Below, piece after piece: positions 5,345-36,921 of a DNA stretch of 41,294 nt (its first letter is position 1; the number at the start of each line of letters is the position of its first letter). The translations under genes were made by a program, and so were the position numbers. The stretch comes from a virus. The stretch lies in UHGV virus genome UHGV-0110231. One strand, written 5' to 3'. Under the pieces are notes generated by a model that saw only the letters and a program-made list of their open reading frames with translations, did no database searches and was not told the origin of the DNA.

Positions 5345-5929
5345 TTATTGTTTGTTTTTTTCGTTCTGGTTGATGACAAATTCAATGTAACTTTCGATCT
5401 TTGCTTTCTCGGTTTCGGGTAACAATGCGTAGCGCGAGCGGTCATAGTTGATGGTCGCAGGGTCGTGCGGGTGAATCAGTAATTCATAGCCGTGACGCCC
5501 GAATGCGGATGCAACATTCTCCAGGGTGGAAATGGAAACGCTGACCTCATTGTTTAACAGGCGGCTGATTGTCACCTGGGCGACGCCGGATGCGCGGTGA
5601 AGTTTTCCCTGTGTTGAAAGGTCGCGGCTTTCGCTCATCCAGCGTTCCAGGTTGTGAGCCGCCAGCTGACCAATGTCGCTTGGGCCGACAGGCTGAAAAC
5701 CTTCCTGAGAAAGCGAGCGATCGATATCAAGCCAGTTACGGGGTTTATTGGCGGCAGCTTCAATTTTTCGCGCAACCTGGTCGCCGATAACCTTCTTGCC
5801 AAGAGCCCAGCGGTTTACCAGATTTGCCTGAGTTCCAAGTTTTTCTGCCATCCGCGTCTGAACACCATTGAATTCACGGTCGATCAAGTCGTTGAGATTT
5901 TGCCTGCGGACGTCCTGGATACTTTTCAT
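5345..5929 (-). CDS. Prophage repressor with two HTH (XRE-type) domains and no recognisable S24 peptidase domain
   Basis: 194 aa; N-terminal HTH (MAEKLGTQANLVNRWALGKK) and a second HTH (ASGVAQVTISRLLNNEVSVSISTLENVASAFG); divergent from the cro-like gene across an operator cluster. Confidence 0.7.
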   Translation of the reverse strand: MKSIQDVRRQNLNDLIDREFNGVQTRMAEKLGTQANLVNRWALGKKVIGDQVARKIEAAANKPRNWLDIDRSLSQEGFQPVGPSDIGQLAAHNLERWMSESRDLSTQGKLHRASGVAQVTISRLLNNEVSVSISTLENVASAFGRHGYELLIHPHDPATINYDRSRYALLPETEKAKIESYIEFVINQNEKNKQ

Positions 5930-11848: not shown

Positions 11849-11889
11849 GAGTAGATTATGCATGATGAATTTGATGGATTTTGAATACT

Positions 11890-11915
11890 GCCGCCAACTA
11901 TGGCGGCTTTATTTT
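11890..11915 (+). terminator. Rho-independent terminator upstream of terminase (tR'-like)
   Basis: Hairpin GCCGCCA-acta-TGGCGGC followed by TTTATTTT. Confidence 0.55.
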
Positions 11916-11958
11916 GCATGGTACTATTACCACAACGGTAACTATTACCACGGTGGTT

Positions 11959-12555
11959 ATGATGCCTGCTGAACCTAAAACCTATAAACGCAAATCAACG
12001 CAATTTAAGCCGCTCACAGCAATGCAGGAGGCTTATTGCCAGTCATACATCAAAACGCCTGAAAACCAGACTCAGGCAGCGATTAACGCAGGATTCTCCC
12101 CAAACACAGCGGCAGTTAAAGCCAGTGTCATGATGCGCGATGAACGCATTCAAAAACGGATTGCCGAGTTGATGGAGGAGCGCAACAAACGAATGCGCGT
12201 CAGTGCCGATTACGTTCTCATGCGCCTGGTGGAGATCGACCAGATGGACGTGATTGATATCCTCAACGACGATGGGAGCCTTAAGCCAATCCGCGAGTGG
12301 CCGAAAATCTGGCGCACTACGCTTAGTGGCTTTGATCTGTCATCGACCATCATGAACATGAACGAGGATTCGATAGAGACAATCCTCAAAAAAATTAAAT
12401 GGCCTGACAAGGTGAAGAACCTCGAACTGATTGGTAAGCACGTCGACGTCAACGCATTCAAAGAACGCCTGGATGTTAATGTGAATGTGACAATTGCTGA
12501 TCGCATAGCGGCAGCCAGGAAGCGACTCAAAGAACGTCAGGATGGTAATCAGTGA
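11959..12555 (+). CDS. Terminase small subunit
   Basis: 198 aa; HTH-like N-terminal part (AINAGFSPNTAAVKASVMMRDERIQKRIAEL); immediately precedes and overlaps the large subunit gene. Confidence 0.7.
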   Translation: MMPAEPKTYKRKSTQFKPLTAMQEAYCQSYIKTPENQTQAAINAGFSPNTAAVKASVMMRDERIQKRIAELMEERNKRMRVSADYVLMRLVEIDQMDVIDILNDDGSLKPIREWPKIWRTTLSGFDLSSTIMNMNEDSIETILKKIKWPDKVKNLELIGKHVDVNAFKERLDVNVNVTIADRIAAARKRLKERQDGNQ

Positions 12556-14027
12556 CAGATACAGCGTTATCTCCTGAAGAGCAGTTGATCGAGGATATTG
12601 CAGGGTTCACTCACGATCCGCTTGGCTATGCCCTCTATGCGTTCCCGTGGGGGGAAGAGGGGACTGAACTGGCACATGCTACCGGCCCACGTCAGTGGCA
12701 GGCTGATGCGTTCCGAGAGATACGTGATCACCTGCAGAATCCAGAGACGCGCTATCAGCCGCTTATGCTGGCACGCGCTTCTGGTCACGGTATTGGTAAA
12801 TCCGCATTCATCTCAATGCTGATCAACTGGGGCATGTCCACTTGCGAGGATTGTAAGATCGTGGTGACCGCCAACACCGACAACCAGCTACGAACGAAGA
12901 CCTGGCCGGAAATTATCAAGTGGTCGAACCTTGCTATCACGAAAGACTGGTTTACCTGTACCGCTACTGCTATGTACAGCAATGATCCTGGGCACGACAA
13001 GCGGTGGCGAGCTGACGCAATCCCCTGGTCTGAGCACAACACTGAGGCATTCGCCGGACTACACAACGAGCGCAAACGCATCATCGTGGTATTTGATGAA
13101 GCGTCGAACATTGCGGATCTGGTGTGGGAAGTTGCCGAGGGTGCGCTAACGGACGAAGACACTGAGATTATCTGGGTGGCGTTCGGAAACCCTACACGTA
13201 ACACCGGACGTTTCCGCGAATGTTTCCGCAAATATAAACACCGCTGGAAAACTGCGCAGATTGACAGCCGAACGGTGGAAGGCACTAACAAACAGCAGTT
13301 GCAGAAATGGGTTGATGACTACGGGGAAGACAGCGACTTCGTTAAAATCCGTGTGCGCGGCATATTCCCTGATGCATCTGAATTGCAGTTTATCCCTACC
13401 GGTCTTACTGATGAGGCAATGAAACGGGTGGTGACCGCTGCGCAGGTGGCGCATGCTCCGGTGATAATCGGTGTTGACCCGGCATATTCAGGCGTTGATG
13501 ACGCGGTGATATACCTGCGGCAGGGGCTACACAGTAAGGTGCTGTGGACTGGCAACAAGACTACCGACGATCTGATTATGGCGAAGCGTATCGCTGACTT
13601 TGAAGACCAGTATCAGGCTGATGCGGTGTTCATCGACTTCGGTTACGGTACCGGGCTGAAGTCAATCGGTGACGGTTGGGGGCGCACATGGCAACTTGTT
13701 CCGTTCGGTGGCGCGTCTACTGACCCGCAGATGCTCAACAAGCGTGGGGAGATGTTCAACTCATGCAAGACATGGCTGAGGCTGGGCGGCATGCTGGATG
13801 ACCAGGAAACAGCGGACGACCTGTCGGCGGCAGAGTACAAAGTTCGAGTGGACGGTAAAATCGCTATCGAACCGAAGGAAGATATCAAGGAGCGGCTTGG
13901 GCGTTCGCCGGGTAAAGGCGATGCGCTACTGCTGACGTTTGCGTTCCCTGTGTCTAAGCGTCTGCGAATTCCCGGGCAGCAGAACCAGCAAGGCAAGGCC
14001 ATTACAGATTACGATCCCTATGCTTAA
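12552..14027 (+). CDS. Terminase large subunit
   Basis: 491 aa; size, position and ATPase/nuclease-like organisation. Confidence 0.8.
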   Translation: MTDTALSPEEQLIEDIAGFTHDPLGYALYAFPWGEEGTELAHATGPRQWQADAFREIRDHLQNPETRYQPLMLARASGHGIGKSAFISMLINWGMSTCEDCKIVVTANTDNQLRTKTWPEIIKWSNLAITKDWFTCTATAMYSNDPGHDKRWRADAIPWSEHNTEAFAGLHNERKRIIVVFDEASNIADLVWEVAEGALTDEDTEIIWVAFGNPTRNTGRFRECFRKYKHRWKTAQIDSRTVEGTNKQQLQKWVDDYGEDSDFVKIRVRGIFPDASELQFIPTGLTDEAMKRVVTAAQVAHAPVIIGVDPAYSGVDDAVIYLRQGLHSKVLWTGNKTTDDLIMAKRIADFEDQYQADAVFIDFGYGTGLKSIGDGWGRTWQLVPFGGASTDPQMLNKRGEMFNSCKTWLRLGGMLDDQETADDLSAAEYKVRVDGKIAIEPKEDIKERLGRSPGKGDALLLTFAFPVSKRLRIPGQQNQQGKAITDYDPYA

Positions 14028-14077
14028 TCCGTTAGCGGGGATAATGACGGAGATATCCTCTGGTGAGGATAAAACAA

Positions 14078-14101
14078 AGCCAGCTCATCGGCTGGCTGTT
14101 T
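14078..14101 (+). terminator. Stem-loop terminator after the terminase large subunit gene
   Basis: AGCCAGC-tcatcg-GCTGGCT followed by GTTTGT. Confidence 0.4.
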
Positions 14102-14113
14102 GTGACATGTCAC
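14102..14113. repeat. Perfect 12-bp palindrome GTGACATGTCAC (copy 2)
   Basis: Between the convergent terminase and gp49-like genes. Confidence 0.7.
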
Positions 14114-14117
14114 GGTG

Positions 14118-14474
14118 TTATTGCTCGCTTAACTTCTGCTTCAGCAAGTAACCTTCAAGCATCCAGATTTTGTTTACAGCATTCTGCCGGGCAATCTTCC
14201 GACCAATTTCTGCATCAAAGTTTTCCGGGCTTGCACAGGCGCTCTCTCCGGTGACGGTGAAGCCATTCTTCAGCACCAGTACGCAGAAAGTAAGGAGGTC
14301 TGTAGATTTATGCGCTGTCCACGCATCGCCAACGCCCATATTGGCGGCACGAATACCGTCATAAGCAGTAAAGAAATGCTCTTCAAGAATGATGCTTTCG
14401 ATATATTGAGGCGTAACGCGCGGTGCCGTTTTGCCTTTCTCAACGATTTCTTTTTCGATTTGCTGGTCGTTCAT
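14118..14474 (-). CDS. Gp49-like phage protein of unknown function
   Basis: 118 aa; antisense to the flanking structural genes; family assignment from memory. Confidence 0.5.
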   Translation of the reverse strand: MNDQQIEKEIVEKGKTAPRVTPQYIESIILEEHFFTAYDGIRAANMGVGDAWTAHKSTDLLTFCVLVLKNGFTVTGESACASPENFDAEIGRKIARQNAVNKIWMLEGYLLKQKLSEQ

Positions 14475-14672
14475 AATCTCACCTTAAAAAAATGCCCGGC
14501 GAACCGGGCGAACTGGAAGCAATGAGTTATGCCTTCCGTGGCTGTACGGGTTTACAGCATGAAGTCATCGCAATGGCGTCCTGCTGTAAAAAGGGCGGTG
14601 ATAGTCCTTCAAGGGAAACCATCACCGCCAAGCCCATGGAACTTCTGGCATCACGGTCCTTAGGCGTGATTC

Positions 14673-14749
14673 TGGCGTGGCATGCAGGATTCGAACCTGC
14701 GACCAACCGCTTAGAAGGCGGTTGCTCTGTCCAACTGAGCTAATGCCAC
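14673..14749 (-). tRNA. tRNA-Arg (anticodon UCU), phage-encoded
   Basis: 77-nt cloverleaf read by hand: acceptor GTGGCAT/ATGCCAC, D-arm GCTC..GAGC, anticodon stem ACCGC/GCGGT with loop CTTCTAA, T-arm GCAGG-TTCGAAT-CCTGC, discriminator G, CCA encoded. Confidence 0.85.
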
Positions 14750-15071
14750 AACGCTGAGAGCACTTAGCCTGTTAAGGCACCACACTTTGTCGCGGCTCCA
14801 TAAATGCTCTCATCGTTGTACCCTCGTCTCTTCCGAGGCGTCACACCGAATCGCCGGGATGGTGAATCCCCGTGCGCGGAATAAAACCGCTCGACTTGCA
14901 CATTCCGGCTACCTGGTTCGTTTGCCCGAGCAAGGGAGGGTGCCCCTTAAACGTATCCAGACCGCTATCGGCGCATGTGCCATACGTCGTACTGCTCAAA
15001 ATAAAAGCTCACTCCACCTGTTCAATTTAACGACAAGCCAGTCAGGTTAATAACCGGAATTAACCCTTTGC

Positions 15072-15086
15072 TTACCTGAAAGGTAA
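15072..15086. promoter_or_regulatory. Operator-like palindrome upstream of the structural operon
   Basis: TTACCTGAAAGGTAA. Confidence 0.5.
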
Positions 15087-15176
15087 TAATTTGTGCGTTA
15101 AATGTCAACTATCTACGATAAATAAATCATATGTGGTTAAATTGGTAATAATTTAATTGCGTACGGAGTCATTGAT

Positions 15177-15383
15177 ATGTGCATGGGTAGCTCACCGTCA
15201 GTGCCTGCAACACCAGAAGTTCAGGCAGCACCACAGGAGCAGGATGCCGCCGTTGTTGATGCCCGCGACGAAGAAACTCGTCGCCGTCGCGCTGCTGCTG
15301 GTCGTAGTTCTACGCTGCTTACCGGTTCTCAGGGTGACACATCAACCGCTAATACCAGCGGTAAAACGCTGCTTGGTCAGTAA
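15177..15383 (+). CDS. Small hypothetical protein preceding the portal gene
   Basis: 68 aa; GGAG Shine-Dalgarno; its initiation-region sequence is duplicated before the portal gene. Confidence 0.45.
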   Translation: MCMGSSPSVPATPEVQAAPQEQDAAVVDARDEETRRRRAAAGRSSTLLTGSQGDTSTANTSGKTLLGQ

Positions 15384-15397
15384 CCGGAGTCATTGAA

Positions 15398-17077
15398 ATG
15401 GCGGAAACAACTAAAGAGCGATTGAACAAACAGTTCGCACAACTTGAAAGCGAGCGTCAGTCGTTCGAGCCGCACTGGCGCGAGTTGAGTGATTACATCA
15501 ACCCGCGTGGTTCCCGCTTTCTTACTTCTGAGGTCAACCGTAACGATCGACGCAATACACGCATTATTGATTCGACCGGGACTATGGCGGCGCGCACTCT
15601 CGCCAGCGGCATGATGTCTGGCATCACAAGCCCCGCGCGTCCGTGGTTTCGCCTGGCTACGCCTGATCCTGAAATGATGGATTATGGTCCTGTTAAGTTG
15701 TGGCTTGAGGCGGTGCAGAACCGCATGAACGATATGTTCAATAAGTCGAATCTCTATCAGTCGCTGCCGCAGTTATACGGAAGCCTCGGCACATACAGCA
15801 CTGGTGCAATGGCAGTACTGGAGGATGACGAGGACATCATTCGCACAATGCCATTCCCGATAGGCAGTTACTACCTGGCTAACTCACCTCGTGGCAGTGT
15901 GGACACCTGTTTTCGCAAGTTCTCTATGACTGTTCGTCAGCTTGTTCAGGAGTTCGGGCTAAATAACGTCAGCGAATCCGTAAAAAGCATGTGGGAAAGC
16001 GGCACCTACGAGAAGTGGATTGAAGTGATGCATTCGGTTTACCCGAACATTGACCGCGATACATCGAAGCTGGATAGCAAGAACAAGCCATTCAAATCGG
16101 TTTATTACGAGGTTGGTGGCGATAACGACAAGTTGTTGCGTGAGTCCGGATTTGATGAGTTTCCAATTATGGCTCCGCGCTGGGAAGTTAACGGCGAAGA
16201 TGTTTATGGATCATCATGCCCGGGTATGCTGGCGCTTGGACCTGTTAAGGCATTGCAGCTTCTCCAGAAGCGCAAGTCGCAGTTGATTGATAAAGCCACC
16301 AATCCGCCGATGGTTGCTCCGACTTCCCTCAAGAATCAGCGCGCCTCCCTTCTTCCTGGCGACATCACGTATATCGATCAGATTACTGGTCAGGATGGCT
16401 TCAGGCCTGCTTATCTGGTTAACCCCAGTACAGCAGATTTGGTGGCAGACATTCAGGACACTCGTCAAATCATTAACAGCGCCTACTTTGTCGATCTGTT
16501 CATGATGTTGCAGAACATCAATACCCGCTCGATGCCTGTTGAAGCGGTGATCGAAATGAAAGAAGAAAAACTTCTGATGTTGGGGCCGGTACTTGAGCGT
16601 CTGAACGACGAATGTCTTAATCCTCTCATTGACCGCGCTTTCTCGATGATGGTGCGTAAAAACATGCTGCCGCCACCGCCTGACGCGATGGAAGGCATGC
16701 CCCTGAAGGTCGAATACATTTCCGTCATGGCTCAGGCGCAGAAGTCTATCGGCCTGTCCAGTCTGGCGTCCACGGTTAACTTCATTGGTCAACTTGCGCA
16801 AGCGAAACCAGAAGCTCTCGACAAACTCAACGTTGATCAGGCGATCGATGCATTCGCTGATATGTCCGGAGTGTCTCCAACCGTCATTGTTCCGCAGGAA
16901 CAGGTTGAGCAGGCTCGCCAGCAACGGGCACAGCAGCAACAGCAGCAACAAATGATGGCGATGGGGATGGCGGCGGCACAGGGTGCCAAGACGCTAAGCG
17001 AAGCTAAAACTTCGGATCCGAGTGTTTTGTCAGCTATGGCGAATGCAGTTAGTGGTCAGGGTGGGCAATCACAATGA
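15398..17077 (+). CDS. Portal protein (T7 gp8-like head-to-tail connector)
   Basis: 559 aa; C-terminal Q/M-rich tail (QQQQQQQMMAMGMAAAQG) resembles the T7 gp8 C-terminus. Confidence 0.8.
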   Translation: MAETTKERLNKQFAQLESERQSFEPHWRELSDYINPRGSRFLTSEVNRNDRRNTRIIDSTGTMAARTLASGMMSGITSPARPWFRLATPDPEMMDYGPVKLWLEAVQNRMNDMFNKSNLYQSLPQLYGSLGTYSTGAMAVLEDDEDIIRTMPFPIGSYYLANSPRGSVDTCFRKFSMTVRQLVQEFGLNNVSESVKSMWESGTYEKWIEVMHSVYPNIDRDTSKLDSKNKPFKSVYYEVGGDNDKLLRESGFDEFPIMAPRWEVNGEDVYGSSCPGMLALGPVKALQLLQKRKSQLIDKATNPPMVAPTSLKNQRASLLPGDITYIDQITGQDGFRPAYLVNPSTADLVADIQDTRQIINSAYFVDLFMMLQNINTRSMPVEAVIEMKEEKLLMLGPVLERLNDECLNPLIDRAFSMMVRKNMLPPPPDAMEGMPLKVEYISVMAQAQKSIGLSSLASTVNFIGQLAQAKPEALDKLNVDQAIDAFADMSGVSPTVIVPQEQVEQARQQRAQQQQQQQMMAMGMAAAQGAKTLSEAKTSDPSVLSAMANAVSGQGGQSQ

Positions 17078-34958: not shown

Positions 34959-36761
34959 TTAATTTATTTTTGATAAAAGATACTTACCTACTATTTTAGA
35001 ACCATCACTAGAAAGATGCCCACCATCAAAATAAACCGGTTTATCATTATGAATAACCATGCACTTCCCATTCTTGCACAGCTCGTCTTTAGGATTTATT
35101 ATCTTATAAGAGGCAAGCCCATCCCCTGAGTTCTCTATAAATAAATCATCAAGTTTTGTGCTCTTTATATCTACTAAATTTTTGCAGCCATCAAGTATGT
35201 GTCTAACTGGAAGTCTATTTCCATTCATGCAAGAAACAACGTCATAGTTTGGATGTTGGTAATTTCCTATTACATACATTCTTTTATCTTTATTAATAAG
35301 TTGTCGCCACTTGTTTATTTGTGAGAGTATAACATTATTATATGATGACTTACTTACATAATCTCCATGACGACTTATTAATTTATCATTATATCTCTCC
35401 CAGTTATGAGCAAGTATTATAGTGTTTGATTTCGATTTATTTATCTCATTGATTGCTTTTTCATACATCGAATAGCATCCTGATTCTTCTTTAGCATAAT
35501 AATCAGGAAGAATTGGGCATGACACTAACGAAATAAATGTTGCATTTATACCTTCACTGTCAATAAAGTCAATGAATTGCTGTGAGTAGCTATCACCAAC
35601 AAAAATAATGCCATCCTGTTTGCTTGATTCATTCAAATGCAAAATCTTTCCATTTGCCTTACCAAATAGTCTGTGTCCTCCATATGACGTATCCACCTTG
35701 CTACTTATCCTTGATGGAGCACCGGCGTAAAATATTGATGATGATATTAACATCATAAATATATATGAAAACAAAATAATATTTATATTTTTAACTTTAG
35801 ATTCAACTAAATGATGAAGTATTAATGATAAAGTGAAAACAATAAACAAATAAAAAAATAACCCAACCTCAATATTTAACTTTCTGAAAAACACTATGAC
35901 AGGCCAATGCACAAGATAAATCGAATAAGAAATTATTCCTATGTACTGTATTACTCTGTTTCTAAAGAATGAATTTTCGTTCATTCCTGAATGTATTACA
36001 AGCATAGCTCCGACAACAGGCACTATTGCATTTACGCCAGGCCACGCCATCGTGTCATTATAAATAATGAATGATAACAGTATCAATACAACACCAAATA
36101 TCTCTCCAATCCTATTTAATTTTAATTTTTTATTAATCACATAAACTATTGCCCCGCCCATCATTTGCCAGGATCTTCCGGGGAGAGAATAGTATGCAAA
36201 TTTACTATGATTGAATGCTTGATATATAGAAAGCGCAAGCGATAAAACGAATATTGAGTAAATAAGAACAACTCTATTGCTTCTATTTTTTACGAGATAT
36301 AAAAAAATTGGGAATAGTATATAGAATTGCCATTCAACAGAAAGTGACCACGTATGAAGTAGTATTTTGCTTTTTGAGTCCGAATCAAAATACCCACTCT
36401 CAAATGCATACACATAATTTGATATGAATGACATGCTTGATAGCATATGCTTTCCAAGCATTTTGTATGATGTTACATCAAGTGATACAAAACCTATTAT
36501 TGAAGTAAACAAAACAACTGCAATAAGTGCTGGTATAATTCTTTTTACTCTTGATGTGTAAAATTTTTTAAATGAAAAGTTACCATTATCCATCCCATTC
36601 ATTATGATGGAGGTCATAAGATAACCTGATATCACGAAGAAAATATCTACGCCAGCAAATCCACCCGGTAACCACTGCGGATTAAAATGAAAAATCACAA
36701 CAGACATGACTGCTATAGCTCTCAGTCCGTCAATATCCTTTCTGCGTTGAATGGAAGGCAT
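34959..36761 (-). CDS. Membrane acyltransferase-3 (OafA-like) with C-terminal SGNH domain; putative O-antigen acetyltransferase
   Basis: 600 aa; N-terminal acyltransferase-3 motifs (DGLRAIAVMSVVIFHF), multiple TM helices, soluble C-terminal domain; strongly AT-rich compared with the rest of the prophage. Confidence 0.75.
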   Translation of the reverse strand: MPSIQRRKDIDGLRAIAVMSVVIFHFNPQWLPGGFAGVDIFFVISGYLMTSIIMNGMDNGNFSFKKFYTSRVKRIIPALIAVVLFTSIIGFVSLDVTSYKMLGKHMLSSMSFISNYVYAFESGYFDSDSKSKILLHTWSLSVEWQFYILFPIFLYLVKNRSNRVVLIYSIFVLSLALSIYQAFNHSKFAYYSLPGRSWQMMGGAIVYVINKKLKLNRIGEIFGVVLILLSFIIYNDTMAWPGVNAIVPVVGAMLVIHSGMNENSFFRNRVIQYIGIISYSIYLVHWPVIVFFRKLNIEVGLFFYLFIVFTLSLILHHLVESKVKNINIILFSYIFMMLISSSIFYAGAPSRISSKVDTSYGGHRLFGKANGKILHLNESSKQDGIIFVGDSYSQQFIDFIDSEGINATFISLVSCPILPDYYAKEESGCYSMYEKAINEINKSKSNTIILAHNWERYNDKLISRHGDYVSKSSYNNVILSQINKWRQLINKDKRMYVIGNYQHPNYDVVSCMNGNRLPVRHILDGCKNLVDIKSTKLDDLFIENSGDGLASYKIINPKDELCKNGKCMVIHNDKPVYFDGGHLSSDGSKIVGKYLLSKIN

Positions 36762-36816: not shown

Positions 36817-36921
36817 TTTTGGTAAGAACAATTTTGGGTATGTTTAACCACATATGGTTTATTGTGTATGATGAACTCACCAACTAAGGGGGTTCTTTAT
36901 GCGTATTAAACGGTGGTCACT

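Follow-up and report, generated by a model that had tools for sequence, protein, structure and literature searches.

A widespread, unannotated phage RNA family supported by covariation, with antitermination as its best-supported hypothetical role

Introduction

Control of RNA polymerase by RNA alone has its paradigm in the put sites of phage HK022. HK022 putL and putR, and the putL-like site of phage HK639, lie in the leader just past a repressor-controlled early promoter, are followed by terminators and have no dedicated protein partner. Here we describe an RNA element that shares this arrangement, encoded on the minus strand of a 41,294-nucleotide viral genome (UHGV-0110231), which is referred to below, over its full length, as the window. 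The element is fused to a tRNA-Arg(UCU) gene in a cassette between the terminase and portal genes of a prophage, and it belongs to a widespread, unannotated family of phage RNAs that is supported by covariation. In the lambdoid loci examined no N gene separates cI from the early-left genes, and antitermination is the best-supported hypothesis for what the RNA does.

The likeness to put extends to one helix. Helix P1 of the family and its flanks (ACGGCG...CAUGCGUCG, including a G·U pair, with a flanking A and CAUG) agree exactly with stem I in both HK022 putL and the HK639 putL-like RNA, a 5-bp CGGCG/CGUCG helix being common to the family and put, and a pattern derived from the family matches the HK022 and HK639 regions at put only. 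The put segment holds U28, which inserts into the β′ zinc-binding domain (PMC9378689). The element is present once in the left operon, as is the putL-like site of HK639 according to its annotation. In other respects the two kinds of RNA differ. The put RNA is about 70 nt long and forms a two-stem 'V' with a triplex in stem I, whereas the family RNA has 170-250 nt, five or six helices and two pseudoknots. Unlike put, the family is also found outside the lambdoid phages (in phage P1 and the Uetakeviruses) and beside tRNAs. Searches for direct homology to HK022 put (BLAST and nhmmer) returned one match, a 14-16-mer inside the nun coding sequence, which we attribute to chance.

Two further antitermination systems and a group of large phage RNAs invite comparison. 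The element stands at the same genomic position as lambda nutL, but it is far larger than a nut site and no gene for an N-like protein is adjacent to it. Like the boxA leaders of rrn operons, it is tied to untranslated RNA genes. The boxA sequence is UGCUCUUUAACAA in rrn and CGCUCUUA in lambda. The 3′ strand of helix P6 of the element, UGCUCU(C/U)..., resembles it (GCUCUUUA-like; UGCUCUC/UGCUCUUU), but this strand is paired, covaries as a helix and is absent from the phage P1 copies. The T4 species 1 and 2 RNAs, GOLLD and ROOL are, like the family, elaborate phage non-coding RNAs linked to tRNA genes, and like them the element is probably matured by tRNA-processing enzymes. GOLLD and ROOL have no sequence or structure match to the element (Rfam), which is much smaller; moreover, most copies of the element, those in lambdoid phages, differ from all of these RNAs in having no tRNA nearby.

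A structured RNA fused to a phage tRNA

The initial annotation of the window had singled out the DNA upstream of the tRNA (14750..15170) as GC-rich, apparently structured, without a convincing open reading frame (ORF) and possibly holding a small RNA or a long leader. A sensitive BLAST search with 14750-15040 showed that unrelated temperate phages carry ~240 nt of it in their non-coding DNA, with about 80% identity. The lambdoid relatives are cdtI, mEp460, Ayreon, 2H10, PhiR63_1, and Stx2c- and some Stx2a-converting phages; the others are phages P1 and P7, Uetakeviruses of Klebsiella, Enterobacter and Salmonella, and a Stenotrophomonas phage. We aligned 33 diverse cores (alignment A1), in which invariant blocks alternate with hairpins that vary in sequence and length. 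The six helices that we propose, including two pseudoknots, are paired in 97.5% of cells, compared with 24-50% when the partners are slid by 1-3 columns. Compensatory changes were found in 11 base pairs (78 cells), and none of 500 shuffles did as well. About 110 cells hold G-U pairs, which would become A-C mismatches if read from the opposite strand, and the RNA is therefore read from the minus strand of the window, the same as the tRNA. A covariance model built from this alignment (model R1) gave a single match in the window, at 14997..14814 on the minus strand (146.9 bits, E = 2e-43). The core measures 158-190 nt across the family (about 170 nt) and the whole RNA about 250 nt. Judged from these sequence comparisons, the minus strand of 14750..14997 very probably encodes a structured RNA of a previously unannotated family (Table 1).

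The 3′ domain of the RNA, closed by helix P6 of ~13 bp, is present in 68 of the 117 unique copies. Its variants keep the helix through changes on both sides (GAGAGCA/UGCUCUC, AAGAGCA/UGCUCUU, AAAAGAGC/GCUCUUUU and GAGAGCGCAC/GUGCGCUC). In the window the last G of P6 is also G1 of the tRNA, so that the RNA and the tRNA are fused with a spacer of 0 nt. P6 inserts range from 40 to 150 nt, some of them with T-arm-like hairpins (GGUUCGAAUCC). One or two such hairpins occur in the inserts of some copies (L003 and L010; L006 and L103), with the sequences CUGG-UUCAAUU-CCAG, UCCG-UUCGAUU-CGGA and AGGG-UUCGAAU-CCCU. Their form suggests tRNA-derived modules or T-loop docking modules.

These results sharpen the first description of the region. 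The impression of structure was justified by the comparative analysis and not by a single-sequence fold of 14750-15030, which is uninformative (minimum free energy z-score of -1.0). The proposal of a small RNA or long leader stands for 14750..14997 on the minus strand, where the covariation-supported RNA runs directly into the 5′ end of the tRNA, and fails for 15000..15170, an AT-rich promoter and operator region. The upstream DNA is not GC-rich: 14750..15000 has 54-60% GC, equal to the coding flanks, and 15000..15170 has 30-38%. We likewise found no convincing ORF in 14750..15170. An 87-aa ORF on the plus strand that starts with TTG is not conserved, and the core lengths of homologues (184, 183, 175, 172 and 163 nt) differ by numbers that are not multiples of 3. 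This frame-breaking variation, together with the strand-specific covariation, rules out protein coding.

At gathering thresholds, the 4227 models of Rfam 15 matched only the tRNA in the whole window, and a scan of 14000-15400 at E ≤ 10 gave nothing in 14750..15170; neither ARAGORN nor Rfam at E ≤ 10 revealed degenerate tRNAs upstream of tRNA-Arg. Two alternative pairings were set aside. The long-range pairing proposed by RNAalifold (columns 14-16/117-119 and 31-33/105-107) rests on invariant columns, and the local P1 hairpin was preferred because the column pair 17:29 switches from G-C to A-U in 16 of the 33 sequences. A helix that would close the structure by pairing the 5′ flank with the stretch that follows P5 was dropped, as inspection showed that its registers disagree between subfamilies.

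Table 1 Positions in the window of the structured RNA, its helices and the other features of the minus-strand cassette
Feature	Position	Strand	Evidence and details
Conserved structured RNA core	14814..14997	-	Covariance model and pair counts
Helix P1	14989-14983 / 14975-14969	-	CGGCRUA / UGYGCCG; one column G-C to A-U in 16/33
PK1	14980-14976 / 14902-14898	-	GCACA in the loop of helix P1 pairs with UGUGC in the 19-mer; no variation, so uninformative
P2	14961-14958 / 14915-14912	-	Around variable hairpin; C-G to U-A in 9 sequences
Invariant 19-mer	14913-14895	-	GGUAGCCGGAAUGUGCAAG; variable hairpin then follows
P4	14870-14867 / 14859-14856	-	Three covarying pairs
PK2	14864-14861 / 14847-14844	-	P4 loop CACC with downstream GGUG; AACC/GGUU in 5 sequences
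P5	14838-14834 / 14826-14822	-	Loop GAAGAGA; four covarying pairs
3′ domain P6	14749..14818	-	CAACG-A-UGAGAGCA (14818-14805) / UGCUCUCA-G-CGUUG (14762-14749), closing variable insert
Predicted leftward sigma-70-type promoter	15080..15108	-	-35 TTGACA 15108..15103, 17-nt spacer, -10 TACCTT 15085..15080
Operator-like palindrome	15072..15086		TTACCTGAAAGGTAA; contains the cassette -10
5′ leader, from inferred start site to RNA core	14998..15072	-	Alignments
tRNA-Arg(UCU), CCA encoded	14673..14749	-	ARAGORN and Rfam RF00005
T1, terminator-like hairpin	14585..14629	-	14629..14594 + CTTTTT; 14-bp stem then CUUUUUA
T2, strong intrinsic terminator	14487..14509	-	14509..14494 + ATTTTTTT; GCCCGG-UUCG-CCGGGC then A and seven U
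Cargo gene of the gp49 / Sf6 gene 66 family, 118 aa	14118..14474	-	Pfam PF13876
T3, terminator-like hairpin	14078..14097	-	14097..14078 + TTGTTTT; cassette end, convergent with the end of terL

The family is widespread and has escaped annotation

About a third of complete Escherichia coli genomes (1851 of 5426) carry the element, which occurs there in phages of the phiV10, lambdoid/Stx and P1 types, at 1938 chromosomal and 554 plasmid places, and among the matches listed no copy has a PGAP annotation beneath it. The invariant 19-mer alone retrieves at least 120 contigs from IMG/VR. After de-duplication these contigs form 43 clusters below about 88% identity, and the locus counts given below refer to 133 loci. 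Four gapped-pattern matches in metagenome-assembled genomes (Latescibacterota, Poribacteria and Chloroflexia) were rejected as a sign of spread beyond Enterobacterales, since about that number (~4) is expected by chance; none of the four was significant with model R1, the best being the Chloroflexia genome (6.5 bits, E = 1.1).

In GenBank records the element is either unannotated or mis-annotated as a hypothetical protein, and a literature search by sequence motifs, put-like RNAs, HK639 and phage P1 transcriptomes returned neither a description of it nor, within the searchable library, a paper in which the motifs appear. Two plus-strand ORFs, 14492..14743 and 14787..15050, are listed as hypothetical proteins in phiV10 (p04), TL-2011b (gp24), BUCT554, mEp460 (gp37) and PhiR63_1. 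Since they run opposite to the tRNA and overlap the structured RNA, these are almost certainly spurious gene calls.

The element occurs in three genomic contexts

We found the element just past cI in the PL leader of lambdoid and Stx phages that lack N, in the trnI-ban interval of phage P1, and in the tRNA/cargo cassette of Uetakeviruses. In the lambdoid loci cI and its terminator come first, the element is next, and the early-left genes (yfdP, yfdQ and others) end the series, frequently with one or two terminator-like hairpins ahead of them; all lie on one strand. This arrangement spans at least six divergent cI immunity types (HTH_3 plus Peptidase_S24), and none of the lambdoid loci examined contains an N gene in the interval from cI to the first of the early-left genes. 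A recent comparative paper comments on the missing N of such phages, which 'may have put RNA-mediated antitermination' (PMC12315714). In mEp460 a PL-like promoter, overlapped by two TTGCATAnnnCGCAA palindromes (operators), lies between the cI terminator and the element, which begins ~45 nt past the promoter; two terminator-like hairpins stand between the element and the first gene. This is the position that put takes, and the window has the corresponding order of promoter, element and T1/T2.

In phages P1 and P7 the element lies within the C1-controlled ban operon, 14 nt past the CCA of tRNA-Ile(CAU) and ~100 nt before ban; helix P6 is absent there. The core of the phage P1 copy (L007, record 71023..71191) is unannotated, and the ban operon also contains a dicF-like region and two further tRNAs. 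In Uetakeviruses the element stands between the control region of the portal operon and a variable cargo slot. A tRNA-Arg(UCU) is fused to its 3′ end in about 32 of the 133 loci, always on the same strand, and Tyrion, BUCT554 and PAT1 have kept the element with the tRNA absent.

Across the 133 loci, every nearby tRNA and downstream gene shares the strand of the element. Same-strand terminator-like hairpins peak 250-500 nt past the core (94, against about 15-35 in other bins). No protein partner conserved across the three contexts was found. All three lie behind repressor-controlled promoters: PL/OL in the lambdoid phages, the annotated Pban/Op72 in phage P1, and a predicted, operator-overlapped promoter in the window.

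A predicted promoter overlapped by a dispersed operator-like palindrome

The promoter was recognized in an upstream alignment of six Uetakeviruses from four host genera (E. coli, Salmonella, Enterobacter and Klebsiella), in which TTGAC, the 17-nt spacing and the -10 region TTACC(Y)TT are invariant and the spacer sequence is variable. From this conservation we infer that 15080..15108 acts as the promoter of the cassette; a strict consensus scan did not call it.

The palindrome that contains the -10 is one of many. The window holds 13 copies of TTACC-N5-GGTAA where 0.8 are expected, a count that none of 100 shuffles reached; they are at 189, 5211, 5273, 5985, 6033, 6370, 8316, 8378, 11927, 11945, 15072, 32014 and 36802. 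None of the 13 lies within a well-supported gene. Five flank a HTH_3 repressor-like gene (5345..5929), and others precede terS, the portal operon, the tailspike gene and a gene at 36913. The sites look like a dispersed-operator regulon of the kind that C1 governs in phage P1, and the cassette promoter would thus come under prophage-repressor control, as PL and Pban do. Because its -10 is overlapped by a palindrome that also flanks the repressor-like gene, silence is expected in an uninduced lysogen, and a missing transcript there, which the initial annotation had taken as telling against an RNA, would mislead.

Within the leader, the Uetakevirus segment at ~15045..14998 on the minus strand, GTCGTTAAAT...GG(T/C)GGAGTG(A/C)GCTT..GGTGTG, resembles by eye the P6 insert and 3′ strand of other subfamily members, namely L080 and the Stenotrophomonas phage BUCT709 (loci L011, L012 and L009 are also concerned). 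A second copy of the RNA, tandem or recombined, may have left this segment as a relic.

The cassette, its tRNA and its variable cargo slot

The window is a prophage of the phiV10, TL-2011b and epsilon15-like type (Uetakevirus). Over 14000-15400 it has the gene order of phiV10 and of O157 typing phages 9 and 10, to which it is 97-98% identical. As first described, a minus-strand unit lies between the terminase large subunit and portal genes, with terS and terL (11881..14027) on one side and the portal gene (15398..17077) on the other. The portal gene was identified by Pfam Head-tail_con (PF12236, E = 1.6e-187) and terS by PF03592, and terL was named from its annotation in relatives. Read along the minus strand, the cassette consists of the promoter, leader, structured RNA, tRNA-Arg(UCU), T1, T2, the gp49-like gene and T3. 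Its description as an insert does not fit, in that Uetakeviruses conserve the promoter-RNA(-tRNA) module and the variable part is the gp49-like cargo gene alone. A 68-aa ORF (MCMGSSPSV...) at 15177..15383 on the plus strand is conserved ahead of the portal gene in every Uetakevirus examined; its annotation notes similarity to epsilon15 p03, and it has no Pfam family.

The tRNA-Arg(UCU) is well formed, as had been claimed. It is the one tRNA that ARAGORN finds in the window (anticodon tct at position 35), and it scores 73.3 bits with Rfam RF00005 against a gathering score of 29 (E = 2.5e-14). It had been expected to decode rare AGA codons, and the codon count agrees: AGA is used 6.6 times per 1000 codons in the ORFs of the window and never in the head genes. 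It is concentrated in the tailspike gene (12) and in a gene at 34959..36761 on the minus strand with AT3 and SGNH acyltransferase domains, which has 20 Arg codons, 15 of them AGA. The latter gene probably encodes an O-antigen acetylase for lysogenic conversion and is the likeliest main client of the tRNA. The pattern fits the usual codon-supply role of phage tRNAs.

The gp49-like gene was confirmed by a full-length match to Phage_gp49_66 (PF13876, 1-82/82, 118.6 bits against a cutoff of 27, E = 1.7e-34). Its slot holds other genes in TL-2011b, SPN9TCW, a Klebsiella phage (DUF2829), Tyrion (DUF551) and PAT1, and homology to TL-2011b, which has a different cargo, ends exactly past the U-run of T2, at window position 14486. 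The tRNA and the gp49/gp66-family gene are themselves ordinary, the latter being one of several alternatives in a variable slot.

The initial annotation had also placed a hairpin with a T-run after both the tRNA and the gp49-like gene. We found two after the tRNA (T1 and T2) and one after the gp49-like gene (T3), which the phiV10 annotation gives as a rho-independent terminator on the other strand. Five terminator-like hairpins were found against 1.8 expected, and at T1 the downstream region folds with a z-score of -3.4. The U-run of T2 abuts the Shine-Dalgarno sequence of the gp49-like gene (AAGGUGAG), 12 nt ahead of its ATG. Because the U-run touches this ribosome-binding site, a promoter cannot fit between T2 and the cargo gene, and the cargo would be expressed by read-through only. 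The 85-nt segment between T1 and T2 (14510..14593, minus strand) has hairpins of its own, ends in T2 and could be a separate small RNA. Weak Rfam matches to RyhB, sau-6072 and anti-hemB at 14486-14562 (E > 2) reflect terminator shape only.

Discussion

By analogy with HK022 put, we tentatively read the RNA as a cis-acting processive antiterminator that works like put without being a member of the put family. On derepression of the prophage, the operator-overlapped promoter at 15080-15108 would fire, and its transcript would cover the leader, the structured RNA, tRNA-Arg(UCU), T1, T2, the gp49-like cargo gene and T3. The nascent RNA would fold and act in cis on host RNA polymerase, as HK022 put RNA does, making it resistant to intrinsic terminators and probably also to Rho. 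The polymerase could then complete the untranslated RNA and tRNA stretch and read through T1 and T2 into the promoter-less cargo gene. In the lambdoid relatives, the same RNA would stand in for N and nut at the head of the early-left operon. We arrive at this reading because the element stands where nutL and putL do in phages whose cI and early-left genes have no N gene between them, because terminators follow it ahead of promoter-less genes, because no conserved phage protein is needed, and because it is found with untranslated tRNA genes, on which Rho naturally acts. On the model of rrn antitermination, the link to such genes would fit a need to resist Rho.

Several observations weigh against antitermination. 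The RNA is 2.5-3.5 times larger than put and has a different topology, model R1 gives no match to HK022 putL or the HK639 putL-like RNA (E ≤ 10), and the essential G35 of put has no counterpart, the equivalent column being variable. In phage P1 the element lies 2.3 kb from Pban, and our scan finds no terminator between it and ban. At least one same-strand downstream terminator-like hairpin is detectable in only 25 of the 43 clusters, and opposite-strand hairpins are enriched in the same 250-500 nt bin (83). An antiterminated polymerase would be expected to pass T3 as well and to run antisense into terL. Finally, the ornate fold, the T-loop inserts and the tight fusion to a tRNA are equally typical of stable RNAs that act in trans.

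The last point leads to the main rival: the element may be a stable, trans-acting non-coding RNA, cut from early transcripts by tRNA-processing enzymes, that binds or sequesters a conserved host machine or a defence factor during lytic growth. In the window RNase P would make the cut at its 3′ end, and in phage P1 the 3′-processing of tRNA-Ile would free its 5′ end. We regard this as rather unlikely. In its favour, the element abuts a tRNA in two of the three contexts (0 nt from G1 of tRNA-Arg in the window, 14 nt past the CCA of tRNA-Ile in phage P1); it has an invariant, single-stranded 19-nt stretch and other invariant blocks, such as are typically seen in RNAs that bind conserved partners in the host; its architecture is ornate, with T-arm-like hairpins in P6 inserts; T1 comes right after the tRNA, so that most transcripts could stop there; and no terminator follows the phage P1 element in our scan. 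Yet the lambdoid copies have no tRNA at either end and sit inside an obligatory PL leader, the element never forms a promoter-plus-terminator unit of its own and never lies opposite to the downstream genes, and the promoter-less cargo gene behind T2 is left unexplained. It is likewise doubtful, though conceivable, that the element, with its double pseudoknot, invariant 19-mer and T-loop-bearing inserts, represents a new class of ornate phage RNA, not put-like, that tRNA-processing enzymes release early in lytic growth and that acts in trans catalytically or by capturing a conserved host machine or a defence factor. A stand-alone, moron-like small RNA gene was rejected, given that the phage P1 copies lie between the tRNA and ban and that all 133 loci are co-oriented with the flanking tRNAs and genes.

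Other explanations fare less well. The succession of promoter, complex conserved fold, terminators and genes in the lambdoid and Uetakevirus contexts would suit a leader that senses a ligand or factor and decides termination downstream (a riboswitch or attenuator), and the core, which is highly conserved, might serve as a binding pocket. We consider this improbable, as the terminators lie 100-350 nt away and outside the conserved fold (in the window a 77-nt tRNA and more than 40 nt precede T1), no alternative pairing between core and terminator was seen, no terminator follows the phage P1 copy, Rfam riboswitch models give no match even with the cutoff relaxed to E ≤ 10, and the downstream genes are functionally unrelated. 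Small ribozymes adjoin tRNAs in other phages, and the double pseudoknot, the invariant unpaired nucleotides and the adjacency to a tRNA could likewise point to a self-cleaving ribozyme or RNA-processing element that separates leader, tRNA and mRNA. This seems a shade less probable again: no known ribozyme family matches (Rfam), RNase P already explains the junction with the tRNA, and cleavage in the PL leader would meet no obvious need. That the conserved stretch is not an RNA at all, and is instead a DNA site or a decayed or short protein-coding gene, is extremely improbable. Plus-strand ORFs over the element are annotated in mEp460, PhiR63_1, BUCT709 and Tyrion, and the single-sequence fold is unremarkable for the same z-score given above, but the compensatory changes and G-U pairs are strand-specific, the core lengths are off by non-multiples of 3, the variable hairpins break every frame, and RefSeq has dropped the phiV10 ORF p05.

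Whatever its function, the element exposes an annotation gap: a large, strongly conserved RNA, carried by 1851 of the 5426 complete E. coli genomes and by phage P1, a model phage, has been missed by PGAP, Rfam and GenBank. If it is indeed an antiterminator, it would explain how N-less lambdoid phages, including the Stx2-converting and SfV/mEp460-type phages, escape their early terminators, and RNA-only control of RNA polymerase would be far wider and structurally more diverse than the HK022 put paradigm. Accessory ('moron') genes and tRNAs placed behind terminators would then be expressed only upon derepression of the prophage.

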